This document shows, piece by piece, positions 6,576 through 35,751 of a stretch of 64,000 nt of DNA. The stretch is from IMG/VR virus record IMGVR_UViG_3300031578_000001. One strand, written 5' to 3'. The translations under genes were made by a program, and so were the position numbers. The notes beneath the pieces are model-generated. The model saw nothing but the letters and a program-made list of their open reading frames with translations, searched no databases and was not told the DNA's origin. Origin of the DNA: a virus. Positions within the stretch are counted from its first letter, which is position 1, and each line of letters begins with the position of its first letter.

Positions 6576-7613
6576 ATGACGACCATTCTCGGTTTTAACA
6601 CGACGAGTCTTATGTTCCAGGGCCACCCGCTTAGCGAGGCCGAGGACGATCTCGTCTACTTTTCCGCGGAGGGAGTGCTTGCCGTAGGTGGGTCTGGAAC
6701 TTCCAAGGCCCTAACCAAGGTCTATTCTGAACTCCTCGGACTTCCTCTTGATAATGGCGCCTTCACCATATCGAGGTCCTTAGATACGGTTTCGATGGCG
6801 AACTCGGCTCCGGCAGGAGAGACGCACTTCGGAACGCTGGTCCTTGATGCCTCCGGGCACTTTAGTCCGGTAGCGCCGGGTTTATACTATTTCGGGTATA
6901 CCGGGTTCGAGTGGCTTGAAGTGGCGACGAACACGCTTTATATCAAACCGGGAGGAGGGGCCGCCAAAGCCGGTGATATTATCACGTCGGATTCAGGTAT
7001 CGGAATAGACGTCTATCTCTATGACTCCTACCTCGGTGATGTTAAAAAATTGATGTCGGAATATGATAACCTCGCCGGGGATGTTACCGGGCTTCTGAAC
7101 AATACGGTCGTTGCCAAGATCCACGGTGATATCGTGGATACGGACGCACCTACAACTGGCGATGTATTCCAATGGAACGGGTCGGAGTGGCACCAACAGC
7201 CAATTTCGAAGGTTCGGGCACATTTGAGCACTGACTTTGCTGTTGCGCCCTCTACTTGGAAAAAAGTTCCGTTTGATACGGAGGACTATGATACTCTCTC
7301 AGAATACGATCCTTCCGCAAACTATAGGTTTACATGCAATGAGGCGGGTTATTACAAGGTTGACGCAGCAGTCAAGTGGGAATTCAGCGCTCAGGGCGAT
7401 CAAATTCTTATAGCTATCCGGCGCAACGGTTCAATAGTTGCTGGCTGCGAAAGATACGTAAGGTATGGTGTATATAATAGCCAGCAAGTTAATGATGTGA
7501 TCTATTTAACAGCATCTCAGTATCTTGAAATCTTCGTATATACCTCATCAAATAGCGCCAACCTAATTGCCAGCGAAGGATCTTCTCACTTTACTGTTCA
7601 CAGGGTTCTTTAA
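6576..7613 (+). CDS. Fibre/receptor-binding protein with C-terminal C1q/TNF-like domain
   Basis: C-terminal VRAH...WKKVPFDTEDYDT...YRFTC..AGYY.V.A.V...IRRNG...VIYLTASQYLEIFVY matches the gC1q-like pattern; N-terminus ILGFNT shared with the 3203 protein. Confidence 0.7.
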   Translation: MTTILGFNTTSLMFQGHPLSEAEDDLVYFSAEGVLAVGGSGTSKALTKVYSELLGLPLDNGAFTISRSLDTVSMANSAPAGETHFGTLVLDASGHFSPVAPGLYYFGYTGFEWLEVATNTLYIKPGGGAAKAGDIITSDSGIGIDVYLYDSYLGDVKKLMSEYDNLAGDVTGLLNNTVVAKIHGDIVDTDAPTTGDVFQWNGSEWHQQPISKVRAHLSTDFAVAPSTWKKVPFDTEDYDTLSEYDPSANYRFTCNEAGYYKVDAAVKWEFSAQGDQILIAIRRNGSIVAGCERYVRYGVYNSQQVNDVIYLTASQYLEIFVYTSSNSANLIASEGSSHFTVHRVL

Positions 7614-20688: not shown

Positions 20689-21345
20689 ATGTCTTTGATG
20701 GTCCAGGTCAGGAGGAACGGAATCCCGGTTCCGGGCCTCTTCATGAAGCGGGGCACCGAAGGTGACGTCTTTCGGTTCGTTGGAGCCGAGACGGGCCATG
20801 CTCAGATCATCAGGATCCAGGACAATACGGTTCTTCCGGATGGGAGGAACAGGGTCACGGTAGGTCCGAATCACACAGCCCCTAACAACACGCCCCAGTA
20901 CATAGACTTCGTCCTGGGGTTCAGGTACTTTGTGGGTCTTCACCAGCTGGACGTGGGCGTTGTGGGACTTCCCAGAGGAACCGTACAGCCCATTGTCGCG
21001 AGAGAGGTCATAGACAGGGCGAGACAGGACTGGGCTGGTTGGGCGAACCCTCCGTACAACTTGGAGCTCGATCCGGATGGGGTGTTCGTCACCTATTTCC
21101 AGGAGACGGCCCCGGACGTGGTTCGTGTCGTGAACCCGTGGCGGGCTGCCATCTTCATATTCTCCGTTCCTCATACTTCTCTTCAGACCGTGTCCAAGAA
21201 CCGGATCACGGTCGAGAACCAAGGGGACAACAGGGCCATCGAACTCCTGGGAGAGAACGACGGCATCGTATTCAAAGCGCCCAACGGGCTCAGGGGTCTT
21301 CTCAGGATCGACAACAATCTCCATCTGGGGGTAGATCCGGTCTGA
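20689..21345 (+). CDS. 218-aa virion structural protein
   Basis: Within tail operon; C-terminal FKAPNG..LRIDNN fibre-end motif. Confidence 0.6.
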   Translation: MSLMVQVRRNGIPVPGLFMKRGTEGDVFRFVGAETGHAQIIRIQDNTVLPDGRNRVTVGPNHTAPNNTPQYIDFVLGFRYFVGLHQLDVGVVGLPRGTVQPIVAREVIDRARQDWAGWANPPYNLELDPDGVFVTYFQETAPDVVRVVNPWRAAIFIFSVPHTSLQTVSKNRITVENQGDNRAIELLGENDGIVFKAPNGLRGLLRIDNNLHLGVDPV

Positions 21346-22340
21346 TGCGTTATACTGACGTCTATAACACGGTGAACCTTGTGCGAAATGGAGGGCTCGA
21401 CTTCCTCAAGTCCCTCAATGAAATCCCTCCGTTCTGGAAGATGCAGGGAGCGGAGCCCAATGCAATCCCTCCCGTGAATTCATTCAGTATCGTAACGGGG
21501 CATGTTCCGGAATCGGAGAATGGGGCTGCGCGGTACTTCAGGTTCGTCCTGTCCTCGTCATCGCCCGTCATCCTCCAGCAGGAGTTTATCGACATCAATC
21601 CCCAGATGACGTTCTGTCCGATGGGGTCCTATCCATGGCAGACGTATGGGGACCGTCTCAGCAACGATAGGTATCCCATTTACGAATACACCCTGATCAG
21701 AGGCATCGAAATCTCGATCGCTGCGAGCATCCGCGTGGTAAAGGGCAGTGCGAAGATCAGCCTGTCCAACAGGTTCAAGGCGGCCAATGAGGAAGAGATA
21801 GAGGTCTACGCAGCCCTGGCATCGAAGGACTGGGTCAGGCCTTCGACCGTGGTGGATCTCAGGGGTCGGATGTTGAAGACGCTCGGCATCAAGATGGAGC
21901 GTATCGGAATGGGCGACGTGGCCGAGATCCATGTGGGCGCGGTGACCATGATCACGGGATCCACGTCGGATGTGCCCTACGTTGGTGATCCGATGGCAGA
22001 CGCAATTCCGAAGGGAGCCATCGTGTTCATGTTCGGAGATGCGTGTCCTCCCGGATTCGATCTCGTGGAACTTCCTGCGCCGGCCAAGCACGGGAGGATC
22101 TTTCCGAGGGAGGGAGCTCCATCTCTTGATGTTGGTGGGGATGAGACGCACGTTCACGACACGGCAGAGATGGTCATGAGTCCGGAAGATGGATGGCTCA
22201 CCCTTGATTTGATCCCGACACCCTTCGGCCAGAACTATGGGACGCCGGCCGACAGTGGAGAGGACGTCCATACCCATGATATGGGCAGTGGTGATCATGT
22301 TCCGCCGTCGAAAGACGTTATTCTCTGTAAGAGACTCTAA
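21345..22340 (+). CDS. 331-aa tail-collar-domain protein (paralogue 1)
   Basis: Start reassigned to ATG 21345 (TGATG coupling); IPKGAIVFMFGDACPPGF, HVH/HTH, C-terminal VILCKRL. Confidence 0.7.
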   Translation: MRYTDVYNTVNLVRNGGLDFLKSLNEIPPFWKMQGAEPNAIPPVNSFSIVTGHVPESENGAARYFRFVLSSSSPVILQQEFIDINPQMTFCPMGSYPWQTYGDRLSNDRYPIYEYTLIRGIEISIAASIRVVKGSAKISLSNRFKAANEEEIEVYAALASKDWVRPSTVVDLRGRMLKTLGIKMERIGMGDVAEIHVGAVTMITGSTSDVPYVGDPMADAIPKGAIVFMFGDACPPGFDLVELPAPAKHGRIFPREGAPSLDVGGDETHVHDTAEMVMSPEDGWLTLDLIPTPFGQNYGTPADSGEDVHTHDMGSGDHVPPSKDVILCKRL

Positions 22341-24583
22341 TGACCCAGAAGATCGAGAGCGCGTTTTCCAGGGTGGCGAACGGGAACTTCTCCCATGGTA
22401 CCGCGTACTGGGAGTCCGTGCTCGCTGGCGATCTGCGTATCCGTACATCAGGGGGCGAGAGCACGGCTCCGAGCCACGAGCTCTATTCAAGATACTGGCT
22501 CGAGGCCAGGGGCCATTTCCAGCACGTCATCCAGTACAAAGATTTTCCTATCTATCCGGCTGCCTCTCGTTTCGACACGGCGGTAGTCCCCGTCGCTCCG
22601 AACCTGTACCTGCTGGCGGCGCAGCCGAATCCCGGAATCGAAGCGATCCGACTTCAGCCGTTCGGAGTCTTCAACCCAGTCGGGCCGCCGATCGCCATGA
22701 AGAGAGGATCGAAGATCCTCGTGGGTTCTCCTTCCGGCGACCACGATCTCGAGACCCGGATCAACAGAGTTCTTAAAGTAACCGAGAAGATCTACAGCCA
22801 GACTCCTTACCTCACGGAGGTGCTGGTCAATATTTCCGGCTCAGGCATGCCAAAGATCTTCAAGCAGGCGATGAGCAGTTACAAGAGGCCGATCAGCAAC
22901 AACCTATTCTCGGTCAGGATAGACAGGACGGCCATAGACAGCGCCATTCGTCCCGACGGAACTGTCGGTGTAAGGGTGGGAGACTACTTCGTGGCCAGGG
23001 ATCCTCTTTGTTCCGGCAGGATATCGGGCATTACGGCCACGGAGATCTTCGTTGTCAAGGATACCAGTCTTCACAGGCTCCCTCTTCTGACTGTTTTCGA
23101 TAAGCCGATCAGAGACTGGTACATCGTCCCGGGATATAACACGACCATGTTCCGGGAAGGCGAGTTCATCCAATACGATCTGACGCTGGCCTTCGACGTC
23201 GCCGGAATAAATAACATCTACAGTGTTTTCATCAAGTTCTACGACGAAATATATTCGGGTACTAACGGCGCCCTGTTCCCCGTGAGAGTCAATCCTGGAG
23301 AGTCGATTCCTAAATTCTGGTATGAGAAACAGATTGGAAACGTCAAAAGGTTTTTCATGCGATTCTTCGGGGAGTACGAGGCTCCGATCATCCACGATAA
23401 AGCTGTGATCGAGTTCACTCAGATCTTTGACAATGCGGAGACTCTCGTCGGAAACGTGGTTCTTCTCCGTGGAAACTACATAGACCGGCTCAAGAAGGAA
23501 GACACCAGTCCCACGGCCGAGGTGGTCGATCTTCTCGAGTCACCGATCAACGTGGAATCGAACATCATTCCCAAGGGTACGATTTTCGCCTACGTGGGAG
23601 GATCCGTGTGTCCTCCAGGATATGAAAGAGCCGAGGGCGTGGGCCGGTTCGAAGCCGGGTCCTTGAAGGATCTTGATGGTCTCAGACTCGACTTCGGTGA
23701 AGGACCTGGATGGTATGGGACCTCGGCTATCCACTGGGACAGAGGCGGGGATCTCGTCAACGGGACCTTTCGTGACCCAACGCATCTGAGGCCCATGACG
23801 ATCTTTGGCATCAACGAATTTGGTCGAGAGAGCGTCGGAAAGTCCTATCCATATCAGGTATCTTCCAGATACGTACCTGTTACTCCTTTCCGGTATACCA
23901 CCGGATCCAACGCGAATCTCCTGGCCTACAGAGATGGGATCGGAGGGGATCCGAGCCCGATTCTCGTGACGGAGGAGTATCTGAGGACGGACGTGGTTCC
24001 GGGCGACATTGTCGAATTCTACAACGAATCGAAACACTACTCGGTGTGCGCTCTCATCGTCCAAGTGGTCGCTGGGGAGTTTGTCACGCACATCCAGGAA
24101 GGAGTGCCTCCCGACATCTTCAACGGTGATCCGGACCTATATCGTGCGAGGCGGCAAGTAGGGGCCGGTATCCCGAGGAACTCGGTGTACCAGGGATACG
24201 GAATGTTCGGGCCGTTCGCCTTCATCCGCGAGCCTCAGACTTTCGTGGAACTCTACGGCGACTTCCAAGAGGTTATCATCAATGCGGCTATCGATCACGC
24301 GAAGATGAGGATCTGGAAGAGCGGTACGATCGCGCATGCCCAGAGGATCCCCGAGGCTCAGATTACCGGACCTCTCGGAGGCTACGGCTACTTCGGAGAG
24401 CCCCATACCCACGTCATGAAGCAGAGCCATGACATCTCCACCTATGGTGACGTGGGGCACTCGAGTCAGGGAGCATTCATCACGACTCCTCTCAAGATTC
24501 CGTATACTCACACGCATAGATCCTTGTTCGGAGCCGTTACGATTCCGAGGATTCGTCCCGTGCTCCTCTGTCAGAAGATCTGA
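22340..24583 (+). CDS. 747-aa tail-collar-domain protein (paralogue 2)
   Basis: VANGNF N-terminus; IPKGTIFAYVGGSVCPPGY; HTH motifs; C-terminal VLLCQKI. Confidence 0.7.
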   Translation: MTQKIESAFSRVANGNFSHGTAYWESVLAGDLRIRTSGGESTAPSHELYSRYWLEARGHFQHVIQYKDFPIYPAASRFDTAVVPVAPNLYLLAAQPNPGIEAIRLQPFGVFNPVGPPIAMKRGSKILVGSPSGDHDLETRINRVLKVTEKIYSQTPYLTEVLVNISGSGMPKIFKQAMSSYKRPISNNLFSVRIDRTAIDSAIRPDGTVGVRVGDYFVARDPLCSGRISGITATEIFVVKDTSLHRLPLLTVFDKPIRDWYIVPGYNTTMFREGEFIQYDLTLAFDVAGINNIYSVFIKFYDEIYSGTNGALFPVRVNPGESIPKFWYEKQIGNVKRFFMRFFGEYEAPIIHDKAVIEFTQIFDNAETLVGNVVLLRGNYIDRLKKEDTSPTAEVVDLLESPINVESNIIPKGTIFAYVGGSVCPPGYERAEGVGRFEAGSLKDLDGLRLDFGEGPGWYGTSAIHWDRGGDLVNGTFRDPTHLRPMTIFGINEFGRESVGKSYPYQVSSRYVPVTPFRYTTGSNANLLAYRDGIGGDPSPILVTEEYLRTDVVPGDIVEFYNESKHYSVCALIVQVVAGEFVTHIQEGVPPDIFNGDPDLYRARRQVGAGIPRNSVYQGYGMFGPFAFIREPQTFVELYGDFQEVIINAAIDHAKMRIWKSGTIAHAQRIPEAQITGPLGGYGYFGEPHTHVMKQSHDISTYGDVGHSSQGAFITTPLKIPYTHTHRSLFGAVTIPRIRPVLLCQKI

Positions 24584-25341
24584 TGGCAACGAACGACTAC
24601 ACACGACTGGCGCTCAGGCCCATGGCCATCAACCGGTTGAAGAACGGTAACTTCAACCGTACGCCCCGGCAGCATACTATCACCGACAATTACAATGTGT
24701 CGGCCTACGCCACGGCTGGGATCACGCGCACGTTCCGTACCAGATACAAGTACGACTCCCAGATGGTCATCGATGGTGCGACGTTGCAGAATCGCGTTAC
24801 GATCCCAGGATTCCATGTCCTTGCGCAGAAACCCGCCGAGACCTTCATCTCTGATTGGTTCGTATGGGGAGCGGAGGGAGTCATCAGCTTCGACGAGCGT
24901 GGTAGATCCATGGACGACGGAGCGAGAGCCGATCTCGAGTTTCTCGCGCCAGGAGATGTCACGTTCCTTCAGTCGATCGAGAGCTTCGATAAGTTCAGGG
25001 GCAAGCCCGTGACCCTCGCCGTCTCAGGTTACCAGAGGAACCGGAACGTGAAGGTCCAGTTCGTGATCGACTGCGGATCCAAGGTGATCGAAGGACGTCC
25101 CTTCCATTCCAGATACTTCGGTCCGTACACCAGGATGATTGACGTCTTTGAGTCGATTCCCCTGGACATTTCGAAGTTCGAGGTCATGCTCAAGATGACC
25201 GGAGGCCAGGGCGGTTCGGTAGGCTTGTCCGGGATCATGATGGCCATAGGAGCCTACGCTTCGGACCTCCCTTATTCGGATAACCCATCCGACGTGGCAG
25301 TTCCGAGCGGGGCCGTGATTCTCTGGCTCGGAGACACGTGA
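24583..25341 (+). CDS. N-terminal 252 aa of tail-collar paralogue 3, ending at an in-frame TGA
   Basis: LKNGNF N-terminus; ends VPSGAVILWLGDT-TGA where paralogues have GDAC/GSVC. Confidence 0.7.
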   Translation: MATNDYTRLALRPMAINRLKNGNFNRTPRQHTITDNYNVSAYATAGITRTFRTRYKYDSQMVIDGATLQNRVTIPGFHVLAQKPAETFISDWFVWGAEGVISFDERGRSMDDGARADLEFLAPGDVTFLQSIESFDKFRGKPVTLAVSGYQRNRNVKVQFVIDCGSKVIEGRPFHSRYFGPYTRMIDVFESIPLDISKFEVMLKMTGGQGGSVGLSGIMMAIGAYASDLPYSDNPSDVAVPSGAVILWLGDT

Positions 25342-25812
25342 CCTCCAGGCTACCGCCCCCTCGTAGAGGATGGCACGTCACTTCACGCGTTCATCGGGGA
25401 TCCCAACGCTTTCTTTGGCAACACTGGGTACAGCCAGATGCGCGGCATTCCCACGGCGATCTATAATCTGAGGCCGGATTTTCCTCCTTCTGGTTCGCGA
25501 AATCTCGAGGTGGGGAGCAACGAGCATAGTCACGAGTCCGGTAACAGGTGGGAGATTCAACCCTCCGGTCTCAAGGAGGAGACGGACAGGTTCAAGACGC
25601 CTATCATCGCTGACAAGCAGGTCCCTATGAGGGAAGTGGCTGCTGCCGCGGCCCAAGGAGATCCACCGGATCCGAATGCCACCAATCCGGTTCCGCCCTA
25701 CGAGGGACTGATTTCGGAAGCGTTGCCCATAGAACATGCGCACGAGATCAAGCTGGGTCAGGAAGACATTCAGATCCCGTACGTCAAGGTCAGGATATGC
25801 GAGAAGATCTAA
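25342..25812 (+). other. In-frame continuation of paralogue 3 past the TGA (read-through portion or broken gene)
   Basis: Reads PPGYRPL...EHSHE...EHAHE...VKVRICEKI, completing the collar domain and paralogue C-terminus; no clear SD before ATG 25438. Confidence 0.75.
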
Positions 25813-26249
25813 TACCGAGGAAGGATCAGAATCCGATCCTATTGTATTCGCCCACATGTCCTTACTGCGGTAAGACACTCGAACCTGTGATCGAATTTTT
25901 CCTATCGAGAGGTATACTTCTAATAGTCCGGCGCCCAATGAAGGAGGAGATCGACAGGATCCCAGGATATCCGGCTCTCTACATTCCGAAGGCGTACTCG
26001 GAGCCGATCATCCTCTTTGGTACCGGTATTGTAGAGACACTCGAGAAGCTTCCTGAGTTGGCGAATTATTATGGACCCTCTCTCCATCATTACGAAGAAC
26101 ATTCCGATCGCGCTGGTGGCCCAGGCATACAGCGAGCAACTCCAAGCGGTGGGAGGAGTACCGCCGTACACGTGGAGCTTGGACTCAGGAGCGTTACCAT
26201 CGGGGGTGTCACTATCGCCCAGCGGGATCCTGGATGCTGCGGCGGGTAA
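25797..26249 (+). CDS. Glutaredoxin/thioredoxin-fold protein (CPYC)
   Basis: ILLYSPTCPYC, helix, strand, IPGYPALYI cis-Pro-like motif, IILFG; C-terminal ~60 codons overlap the next gene. Confidence 0.6.
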   Translation: MREDLIPRKDQNPILLYSPTCPYCGKTLEPVIEFFLSRGILLIVRRPMKEEIDRIPGYPALYIPKAYSEPIILFGTGIVETLEKLPELANYYGPSLHHYEEHSDRAGGPGIQRATPSGGRSTAVHVELGLRSVTIGGVTIAQRDPGCCGG

Positions 26250-34143: not shown

Positions 34144-34266
34144 TGGCGCGGGCCGGATTCGAACCGGCTTAGGCTTCCCGTAAGGAGTAGGTAAGTCGGG
34201 GTACTCCTTGCCGCGAAACCCACCACTCCCCACCTACGTGGGCACGTCCCACCGTGCCACCGCGCC
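34144..34266 (-). ncRNA. 123-nt tRNA-like RNA with canonical acceptor, D and T arms but a 73-nt middle region
   Basis: GGCGCGG/CCGCGCC+A acceptor, GCAC/GTGC D stem, GCCGG-TTCGAAT-CCGGC T arm; no canonical anticodon loop; no encoded CCA. Confidence 0.6.
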
Positions 34267-35412: not shown

Positions 35413-35751
35413 TCAGGCCGGGCTATCCAGATACGCCTGGACGCTCTCTTTCAGCGTCGGTGCGAGATGGTGGATCTTTCTATCCCATTCCACTCGCGAG
35501 AAGGTGTTGTTGTCCAGGGGCTGGCACATCCACCATCCGGCGTGCTTGGGGATCGTCGTCACTTTGAGGTACTCCTCGGACACTGTCTTCCACGCGCCGT
35601 CTATCTTCCGTTTGACATCCCGCAGGACGATCTTTGCGTCCGGGTAGCGGGCTCTGTGCATCCCGTGGTAGACCGAGATTCTCCGCAAGGGTATGCGCCG
35701 CACCGATAGGAAGTGTTCGGCGATCGTCTCCAGCAGTTCGCTGTCGGTCAT
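35413..35751 (-). CDS. 112-aa hypothetical protein
   Basis: Start reassigned to ATG 35751 (SD GGAGG). Confidence 0.65.
   Translation of the reverse strand: MTDSELLETIAEHFLSVRRIPLRRISVYHGMHRARYPDAKIVLRDVKRKIDGAWKTVSEEYLKVTTIPKHAGWWMCQPLDNNTFSRVEWDRKIHHLAPTLKESVQAYLDSPA

Follow-up and report, generated by a model that had tools for sequence, protein, structure and literature searches.

Conserved in-frame UGA at an invariant cysteine position of a phage fibre-like gene: evidence for decoding and a candidate selenocysteine site

An in-frame UGA in a structural gene of a phage can end translation or be read as an amino acid, and the gene that opens at ATG 24583 of the 64,000-nucleotide stretch analysed here (the window; IMG/VR record IMGVR_UViG_3300031578_000001) raises the question of which of these applies, and by what mechanism. 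Its TGA falls at 25339-25341 on the plus strand, in the context GAVILWLGDT-stop-PPGYRPLVED, and lies precisely on the conserved Cys of a CPPG[YF] motif, as an earlier note on this DNA had reported. Beyond the TGA the frame is open for the further 156 codons that the note had counted and runs to VKVRICEKI, with the stop codon at 25810-25812, giving a read-through product of 409 aa. The source is an uncultured giant phage with a 182-kb genome.

The product is a fibre-like or baseplate-like protein from the phage structural module. Its N-terminal half (about residues 20-250) is predicted to form a CBM-like beta-sandwich, with pLDDT above 90 at residues 90-230 of the AF2 model and Foldseek matches to the carbohydrate-binding modules CBM4/22/29/61 (E about 1e-5 to 1e-6). 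In the C-terminal part, residues 254-409, the alignments show two HxH motifs that are invariant and a C-terminal Cys; this domain has no recognisable relatives, and the family profile matched zero phage proteins among PDB sequences. The label of tail-collar domain given earlier is unsupported: Pfam, PF07484 (Collar) included, returned zero families at E <= 1 for the product or either of its two paralogues, PHROG returned zero matches, and comparison with gp12, gp37 and the Collar domain gave no match in sequence or fold. The alignment does confirm Cys at the TGA column in both paralogues; the positions 21345 and 22340 quoted for them are gene starts, not motif positions. The features discussed below are collected in Table 1.

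Table 1. Coordinates of the gene, its paralogues and associated features in the window
Feature	Position	Strand	Basis or remark
Paralogue 1, 331 aa, GAIVFMFGDACPPGF	21345..22340	+	ordinary Cys codon in CPPGF motif; C-terminal LCKRL
Paralogue 2, 747 aa, GTIFAYVGGSVCPPGY	22340..24583	+	ordinary Cys codon in CPPGY motif; C-terminal LCQKI
Whole read-through gene, 409 codons	24583..25812	+	alignments, AF2 model, Foldseek
TGA, codon 253 (motif G-D-T-[U/C]-P-P-G-Y), proposed Sec codon	25339..25341	+	aligned with invariant Cys column
Start-less stretch, 32 codons, PPGYRPLVEDGTSLHAFIGDPNAFFGNTGYSQ	25342..25437	+	between TGA and first downstream in-frame start
RNA hairpin GCC.CCUC-GUA-GAGG..GGC, candidate SECIS or recoding stimulator	25355..25374	+	consensus structure
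Cys406 codon TGC, C-terminal motif xCxK[IL], presumed partner of residue 253	25798..25800	+	invariant in 44 sequences
Uncalled ORF, small CPYC thioredoxin/glutaredoxin-like protein (putative)	25797..26081	+	motif, conservation, language-model matches

Across the family, the column aligned with the TGA holds Cys in 71 of 80 representatives and is invariant in the 44-sequence alignment, and the members that lack Cys have a small Val, Ala or Leu instead. Codon 253 is TGA in the window, L001, L007-L010 and L011-L014. These fall into three lineages, the first comprising the window with L011-14, the second L001/P0005 and the third L007-10/P0014, where L001 and L007-10 serve as the DNA representatives of P0005 and P0014; amino-acid identity to the window is about 85% for L001 and about 54% for L007-L010. 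The codon is TGC or TGT in L002-L006, L015 and L016, of which the last two are syntenic, uninterrupted orthologues of 387-390 aa. Relatives were not found in IMG/VR, GTDB genomes or GenBank phages. The earlier note had proposed TGC or TGT in relatives as a sign against recoding, and the outcome is divided: the closest relatives have TGA, and the more distant orthologues have TGC or TGT. TGA in close and TGC/TGT in distant orthologues is how Sec/Cys pairs classically appear. An error of sequencing or assembly at 25339-25341 has nothing in its favour and is excluded: the identical 252-aa call, with the same stop, recurs in ENA, JGI and Logan, on 8 contigs whose samples and assemblers are independent, and the two other lineages have the stop as well.

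The stretch directly after the TGA lacks any start codon, so its translation is possible only by decoding of the TGA. Over these 32 codons the window and L001 differ by 10 synonymous changes and 1 non-synonymous change (dN/dS 0.02), and purifying selection acts on the frame beyond the UGA (dN/dS 0.02-0.36). The motif PPG[YF]R.[LV]VED..[YS]L....GDPNA that follows the TGA is shared with the Cys-type orthologues. Starts further downstream are non-homologous, being ATG 25438 in the window, a CTG at that place in L001 and a GTG at L007:6001; ATG 25438, already described as having no clear Shine-Dalgarno sequence, indeed has none and is not conserved either. Ribosomes thus decode the UGA at codon 253, because TGA is conserved in diverged lineages and the start-less codons are under purifying selection. 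If the UGA were instead a genuine terminator, the gene would be split or decaying, with the 252-aa N-terminal protein as its only product, and what follows would be a remnant or else a 124-aa protein of its own, initiated at 25438. Automated gene calls do annotate 252 aa plus 124 aa, in every assembly. However, the 156 codons have stayed open in three lineages despite saturated synonymous divergence, the dN/dS of 0.02 applies to codons ahead of any start, the would-be start differs from lineage to lineage, and the family motifs PPGY..VED..GDPNA, HxH and CEKI are all retained; termination is accordingly considered very improbable. A recent TGY-to-TGA nonsense mutation is ruled out, the TGA having been kept over the 1.33 substitutions per site that separate the TGA lineages on the tree, with synonymous sites saturated (pS 0.62-0.68) and the downstream dN/dS as given. 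Two of the four readings that the earlier note had listed, error and recent mutation, are thereby removed, and Sec insertion and programmed read-through remain.

Elsewhere in the window TGA is a genuine stop, as had been claimed, and is in fact the commonest one (17 of 27 called genes; 52 of 87 genes in a heuristic set). TGA-C occurs at 16 of the 52 ordinary TGA stops in the heuristic set; an avoidance of TGA-C at ordinary stops, apparent in the 27 genes, was gone in the 87. Genome-wide reassignment of TGA (codes 4/25) was rejected, since TGA is the main terminator, only one convincing split gene is present in 64 kb, and no tRNA with a UCA anticodon is seen there. Decoding could be more selective, by a dedicated suppressor: an opal suppressor tRNA of phage or host, or a tRNA(Sec)-like tRNA(Cys) with anticodon UCA delivered by SelB. 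It is common for large phages to have tRNAs of their own, UGA-to-Cys recoding reportedly occurs in some Deltaproteobacteria, and insertion of Cys would keep the Cys pair, while the SelB route would also require the hairpin. Against such a suppressor, the window contains no standard tRNA. One candidate opal suppressor was the tRNA-like element at 34144-34266(-); it was rejected, as ARAGORN (introns allowed) reads it as tRNA-Arg(CCT) with a 49-nt insert and no UCA anticodon. A general opal suppressor would, moreover, clash with TGA as the commonest stop, and a dedicated suppressor is judged improbable.

The weak hairpin that the earlier note had pointed out downstream of the TGA, at 25355-25374, is borne out by folding, with an MFE of -8.3 kcal/mol for the window (31-nt context; single-sequence z = -1.5), again -8.3 for L001, and -5.2 for L007. 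It consists of a 3-bp lower stem, a 1-nt 5' bulge, a 4-bp upper stem (CCUC/GAGG) and a GUA triloop that begins 21 nt past the UGA. Its small size and weakness (-5 to -8 kcal/mol) speak against selenocysteine. The hairpin stands in register in all three TGA lineages, with one compensatory pair (C-G to U-A), and its consensus energy of -7.7 to -7.8 ranks first of 229 sliding windows, no other RNA structure in the gene being as well conserved. Third-codon positions are invariant at 4 of 5 paired and 2 of 12 unpaired sites (p = 0.028), and it is unable to form in L015 and L016, the nearest Cys-type orthologues. A scan for synonymous conservation with L001 as the sole comparison did not single the hairpin out: three other identical runs equal the 17 nt found there. 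The bSECIS consensus calls for an apical loop of 3-9 nt, an upper stem of 4-16 bp, a G in the first two loop positions, a spacing of 16-37 nt from the UGA and an MFE <= -7.5 kcal/mol (PMC13188914). The window and L001 pass these criteria, as do 18% of random in-frame window positions and the Cys-type L002 and L004, and L007 has the geometry but, at -5.2, exceeds the energy limit. A search of Rfam gave no match at the gathering threshold, with chance-level matches only around the gene and no SECIS. An archaeal-type SECIS in the 3' UTR was also considered and rejected, the 259-nt "intergenic" stretch 3' of the gene being a coding redoxin ORF that Cys-type phages have too. The hairpin at 25355-25374 is a candidate SECIS element.

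The same hairpin could instead be the stimulator of a programmed, low-level read-through of the UGA by a near-cognate tRNA, which in cases of the Qbeta A1 type is normally tRNA-Trp. Most ribosomes would then release the 252-aa CBM-like domain and a few per cent would make the 409-aa form, so that two products are held in a fixed ratio or the full-length one is kept at low copy. Such read-through would need no special host machinery, and by SECIS standards the hairpin is weak. The UGA is also followed by C in all lineages, reportedly the weakest termination context in E. coli; this C, however, is imposed by the invariant Pro254 codon, and TGA-C is so ordinary in this DNA that the context does not mark out codon 253. 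Near-cognate read-through further leaves unexplained why, of some 400 codons, it is precisely that of an invariant, paired Cys that the stop occupies, would place Trp where the family has Cys or a small Val, Ala or Leu, and does not account for the retention of Cys406, which is often lost along with the first Cys. To our knowledge no hairpin-stimulated stop-codon read-through has been described in bacteria. This mechanism is rated as less likely than selenocysteine, though well ahead of a dedicated suppressor.

That the UGA at codon 253 is instead a sense codon for selenocysteine, in an intact gene, is given an even chance, and what tilts the balance towards it is that the hairpin is conserved, that the partner Cys is retained and that a redoxin gene is coupled to this one. 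Speaking against it, neither tRNA-Sec nor selA, selB or selD was seen in the window. Criteria used for new bacterial selenoprotein families are at least two Cys homologues, a TGA at the aligned place in at least two distinct sequences, and a hairpin resembling SECIS (PMC1088965). All three are found for 24583..25812: the UGA aligns with Cys in at least two homologues, it occurs in more than one sequence (three lineages, with purifying selection downstream), and the hairpin follows it.

As for the partner, Cys406 is retained in all TGA lineages. In the family as a whole 67 members have both Cys, 5 have neither and 4+4 have one only (Fisher p = 5e-4, uncorrected for phylogeny), the last Cys being missing in 5 of the 9 members without the first and in 4 of the 71 that have it. 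This association points to Cys406 as the presumed partner of residue 253. A second Sec site at the partner position was considered for P0054, which ends just ahead of the expected Cys, and was discarded, its stop being TAA with no EKL after it.

The third element is the putative redoxin ORF. It opens with an ATG that overlaps codon 406 (Cys) of the fibre gene, and it formally extends to 26249, across the start of the next gene. It is conserved in the window, L001, L007-10, L015 and L016, with CPLC in place of CPYC in L015/L016, and both the CPYC/CPLC motif and G-Y-P-A-L are conserved. Its PDB matches are all to glutaredoxin or thioredoxin, though weak (E 0.04-0.7); the ten best language-model look-alikes are all thioredoxin or glutaredoxin clusters (score 0.92); and the b-a-b-a-b-b-a order of the AF2 model fits the thioredoxin fold, but at a pLDDT of 44. 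Pfam gave nothing above cut-off for it. The redoxin gene is translationally coupled to the fibre gene, the overlap of the two genes being what links redoxin and fibre. This coupling fits a published pattern in which Sec reportedly evolves from redox-active Cys (PMC1794560).

In the selenocysteine reading, the hairpin, lying 13-35 nt downstream of the UGA, would recruit a host SelB/Sec-tRNA(Sec) complex, and Sec would be placed where other family members have Cys, while non-recoding ribosomes would release the 252-aa CBM-like N-terminal fragment. Residue 253 would adjoin the extreme C-terminal strand and pair with Cys406, in a disulfide in Cys-type phages and in a selenylsulfide here, so closing the HxH-containing C-terminal domain of the virion protein. 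The CPYC redoxin would probably form or edit the 253-406 bond in the cytoplasm. Taken as a whole, this amounts to a phage-encoded virion selenoprotein that combines host Sec machinery and a minimal intragenic SECIS with a selenylsulfide lock, made in the reducing cytoplasm with the aid of the redoxin, among phage lineages that switch between Cys and Sec at residue 253; the joint proposal is held tentatively, at somewhat less than even odds.

Bacterial selenoprotein genes, such as E. coli fdhF, offer the closest comparison. They likewise have an in-frame UGA at the Cys of homologues, conserved in diverged sequences; a hairpin just downstream, with G-U opening a small apical loop, here 21 nt from the UGA against a consensus of 16-37; and a thiol-redox context, represented here by the partner Cys and the adjacent CxxC redoxin. 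Unlike the present gene, they encode oxidoreductases, and known Sec residues are catalytic, whereas the Sec proposed for this fibre or baseplate-like protein would be structural. The present hairpin is also at the minimal end (3-nt loop, 4+3 bp, -5 to -8 kcal/mol), and it would fall to the host to supply the Sec machinery. The literature searched held no precedent for a structural Sec in a virion protein and, in full text, no report of a phage selenoprotein or virion selenoprotein.

Among phages, the A1 protein of Qbeta and other Leviviricetes (UGA read by tRNA-Trp) is alike in having a leaky UGA in a structural gene, with a short major and an extended minor product, as would be the case here. 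There, however, the coat domain naturally ends where the stop stands, whereas here it stands on an invariant Cys with family-conserved sequence directly after it, and the phage is a large dsDNA phage. Stop-codon-recoded phages are likewise large and have in-frame stops in late (structural) genes, but such stops are numerous in them and usually go with a suppressor tRNA, compared with one gene in 64 kb and no suppressor tRNA found here; the reassignments reported for their late genes are TAG to Gln and TGA to Trp (Borges et al., bioRxiv 10.1101/2021.08.26.457843). The invariant HxH of the C-terminal part resembles that of T4-like fibre proteins, in spite of the missing sequence or fold match to them. 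In gp12 and gp37 the HxH is metal-binding. Poxviruses have cytoplasmic disulfide pathways, and the present locus is similar in placing a putative viral thioredoxin-fold protein beside a cysteine-paired virion protein, though here the link is the gene overlap alone.

Should the residue be Sec, the known reach of selenocysteine recoding would come to include bacteriophages and a function that is structural, not catalytic; phages and viruses go unmentioned in a review of prokaryotic selenoproteomes from 2026 (PMC13188914). The virus would rely on trace-element decoding machinery of its host to build its particle, which could link host range to the Sec trait, and it would be a case from nature of virions stabilised by selenide bonds, a goal pursued by experimental evolution of T7 (PMC8923235). 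Should the UGA be read through by a near-cognate tRNA, the gene would exemplify something rare in dsDNA phages, a conserved stop-codon read-through with an associated hairpin. Under either mechanism, gene callers split the fibre gene into 252-aa and 124-aa parts in every assembly, and the overlapping redoxin gene escapes them.

It is secure that, in a phage virion-module protein, a conserved UGA is decoded where the family has an invariant Cys, and secure as well that this UGA is accompanied by a hairpin conserved in the RNA and by a coupled redoxin gene that had been overlooked. The reading frame from 24583 runs ...GAVILWLGDT-TGA-PPGYRPLVED..., with the TGA (25339-25341) at residue 253, followed by 156 further open codons to the end at ...VKVRICEKI-TAA (25812). 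Its two upstream neighbours, 21345..22340 and 22340..24583, are paralogues that carry Cys at the aligned site (GDA-C-PPGF and GSV-C-PPGY, respectively) and, in both, a second Cys at four residues from the C-terminus. An earlier note had described a TGA at a conserved Cys with the frame open downstream, and direct translation and paralogue alignment show this to be correct as written. Its statement that TGA is a genuine stop elsewhere is likewise borne out: TGA ordinarily terminates genes here, 17 of the 27 called in the region and 52 of the 87 heuristic ones in the window, with the TGA-C context at 16 of those 52 stops. The name "tail-collar" used there finds no support, Pfam and PHROG searches with the main protein and both paralogues having matched no family.

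Sequencing error and recent nonsense mutation were among the causes first considered for the TGA. An identical 252-aa product is predicted on eight contigs, which stem from several samples and from three assembly sources, and TGA is present in all four of these contigs examined as DNA. The same codon is TGA in two further lineages, represented by the metagenomic locus L001 (protein P0005, about 85-87% identical to the window's protein) and by loci L007-L010 (related to P0014, about 54% identical). Error and recent accident are thus ruled out by the eight contigs together with the two diverged lineages, TGA having been kept in three lineages despite saturated synonymous sites (pS 0.62-0.75). 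The path from the window to L007 is 1.33 substitutions per site in a maximum-likelihood tree. In the best tree the five TGA rows cluster together (support 79/62; 82% of bootstrap trees), and the nearest neighbours of this cluster, proteins P0006 and P0007, are of the Cys type; their loci are perfectly syntenic with the window and hold an uninterrupted 387-390-aa gene with TGC or TGT at the site. Cys also occupies the site in all more distant orthologues and in 60-odd other family representatives. The alignment of orthologues suggested in the earlier note, where conserved TGA would speak for recoding and TGC or TGT for mutation, therefore gives a divided answer, with L001 and L007-L010 on the first side and the P0006 and P0007 loci on the second.

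Sequence past the codon is maintained as protein. The segment PPG[YF]R.[LV]VED..[YS]L....GDPNA, right after the site, is conserved family-wide, Cys-type members included. The 32 codons that follow the TGA in the window contain no ATG, GTG or TTG, and between the window and L001 they show 10 synonymous differences and one non-synonymous difference (dN/dS 0.02). The ATG at 25438, a candidate for reinitiation, is CTG in L001, and the GTG of L007 sits at a different place; because these downstream starts are non-homologous, reinitiation cannot explain the conservation after the TGA. A pseudogene or split gene is very unlikely, since in each of the three TGA lineages the frame runs open as far as ICEKI, the family motif at the C-terminus.

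A common hairpin, at 25355-25374 in the window, can form in all three of these lineages. Numbered from the U of UGA as 1, its pairs are G17-C36, N18-N35, N19-G34, C21-G31, C22-G30, U23-A29 and C24-G28, with C20 bulged and a loop of G25-U26-N27. RNAalifold recovers it, with a single compensatory replacement of C-G by U-A and one G-C to G-U change, and it ranks first of 229 windows in a sliding 30-nt scan of the whole shared alignment. Across the 17 codons compared, four of the five paired third positions are invariant, the fifth being the compensated one, and 10 of the 12 unpaired third positions vary (one-sided Fisher p = 0.028). In the closest Cys-type orthologues the hairpin cannot form. The published bacterial SECIS consensus calls for a loop of 3-9 nt, an upper stem of 4-16 bp, an MFE <= -7.5, 16-37 nt from UGA to loop, and G within the first two positions of that loop, usually as G and then G or U (PMC13188914). 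The window and L001 hairpins pass every item at -8.3 kcal/mol, and that of L007 passes on geometry with an energy of only -5.2. Passing is weak evidence by itself because the model is permissive, accepting 18% of random in-frame positions in the window's genes and two Cys-type orthologues; the weight of the case lies on the conservation pattern. Rfam yields no match for the hairpin.

The Cys replaced by UGA has a presumed partner. When 80 family members were scored for both positions (253 and 406), 67 had both Cys, five had neither, four had only Cys253 and four only Cys406 (Fisher p = 5e-4, without correction for phylogeny); three of the four with the first alone have truncated or unrelated C-termini. 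Cys406 is kept in all TGA lineages. The 259 nt after the main gene, left empty by the gene callers, specify a small protein that is conserved (MREDL..ILLYSPTCPYCGK..IPGYPAL...), and the start codon of its ORF (ATG, 25797-25799) overlaps the Cys406 codon (25798-25800). The protein has a CPYC motif, which is CPLC in the Cys-type loci L015 and L016. Its predicted order of secondary structure is, at low confidence, that of glutaredoxin; its PDB sequence matches are weak and every one is a glutaredoxin or thioredoxin, and its ten best language-model look-alikes all belong to the thioredoxin clan. The ORF occurs in TGA-type and Cys-type phages alike. From the gene overlap we infer that its product is a thiol-disulfide oxidoreductase that would serve the Cys pair in one or more fibre proteins. 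Formally the ORF runs about 60 codons, in another frame, into the next gene (start 26071); this tail, which ends ..CCGG in the window and L007 and DCDCGG.. in L015, may either be translated or be a mere shadow of the other frame's conservation.

In an AlphaFold2 model built on a 44-sequence alignment, residues about 20-250 of the main protein form a confident beta-sandwich (pLDDT >90 over most of 90-230) that matches carbohydrate-binding modules CBM4, 22, 29 and 61 (Foldseek, E about 1e-5 to 1e-6). A monomer model of the C-terminal 150 residues is poor, and searches found no recognisable relatives by which to classify them. The same alignment shows G311, H315, H317, H385 and C406 to be invariant in this part, as is C253, and H387 to be near-invariant. 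Only two places score well here, the strands near 245-259 and the last strand (404-408), and the model is consistent with packing of the C-terminus beside the CPPGY segment. All three tandem paralogues share an N-terminal NG-F, the CPPG[YF] Cys, HxH motifs and a C-terminal xCxK[IL]. At 50% identity their metagenomic family splits into at least 78 clusters, some of them fusions of 1,500-2,000 aa; no Pfam family covers it, and no relatives turned up in IMG/VR, among GTDB genomes or among GenBank phages. Genes nearby encode, among others, giants with Ig domains, a C1q-like protein and a protein that contains a YadA-stalk segment; such company indicates that the region is an adhesin or fibre module from a large uncultured phage, and the adhesin-type parts (YadA stalk, C1q-like) suggest a Gram-negative host. 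In the Cys-type relatives a gene whose rubrerythrin matches are weak or faint lies 3' of the fibre module (L015:13961-14623; L016:13056-13745), and L015 additionally carries an STIV_B116-like gene.

Features in the window
Feature	Coordinates	Strand	Evidence
929-aa protein, YadA-stalk (trimeric autotransporter adhesin) segment	3203-5992	+	E = 7e-9
345-aa protein, borderline C1q-like C-terminal domain	6576-7613	+	E = 8e-5
Three tandem paralogues, 331, 747, 409 aa	21345-25812	+	shared motifs
Uncalled CPYC glutaredoxin/thioredoxin-like ORF	25797-26249	+	conservation, weak PDB sequence matches
tRNA-like gene, 123 nt	34144-34266	-	canonical acceptor, D, T arms

The chances are about even that the residue inserted at the UGA is selenocysteine. 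This reading is favoured because the site is an invariant Cys whose partner is kept and which has a redox neighbour gene, because the conserved hairpin has G-U in its loop and canonical spacing from the UGA, and because this one TGA is singled out where TGA, including TGA-C, usually terminates; it is the sole reading that covers all five features jointly. Against it count the minimal hairpin, the silence of Rfam, the lack of any sel gene or tRNA-Sec in the 64-kb window, and the unusual nature that a structural Sec would have. Near-cognate read-through of the UGA is accordingly a serious rival, if itself a rather unlikely one, and Cys delivered by SelB, or another suppressor, is a minor and quite improbable one. 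The tRNA-like gene was rejected as an opal suppressor: run with introns permitted, ARAGORN assigns it to tRNA-Arg(CCT) and places a 49-nt insert between positions 31 and 32. That insert is below group I intron size and its site is non-canonical, which is unexpected in a bacteriophage.

The likeness to a bacterial selenoprotein gene is mechanistic, and sequence-level criteria support the main gene's membership. The operational criteria used for calling new bacterial selenoprotein families (PMC1088965) admit it too. Full-text literature searches turned up no selenoprotein encoded by a phage, and a 2026 review of prokaryotic selenoproteomes leaves phages and viruses unmentioned (PMC13188914); the nearest conceptual link is an attempt to evolve selenide bonds in T7 under an engineered code (PMC8923235). 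Elsewhere in the window, a TGA-C at 35413-35415 on the minus strand lies between same-frame open stretches of 138 and 64 codons with a positive coding score; amid small minus-strand genes, these are probably just adjacent genes.
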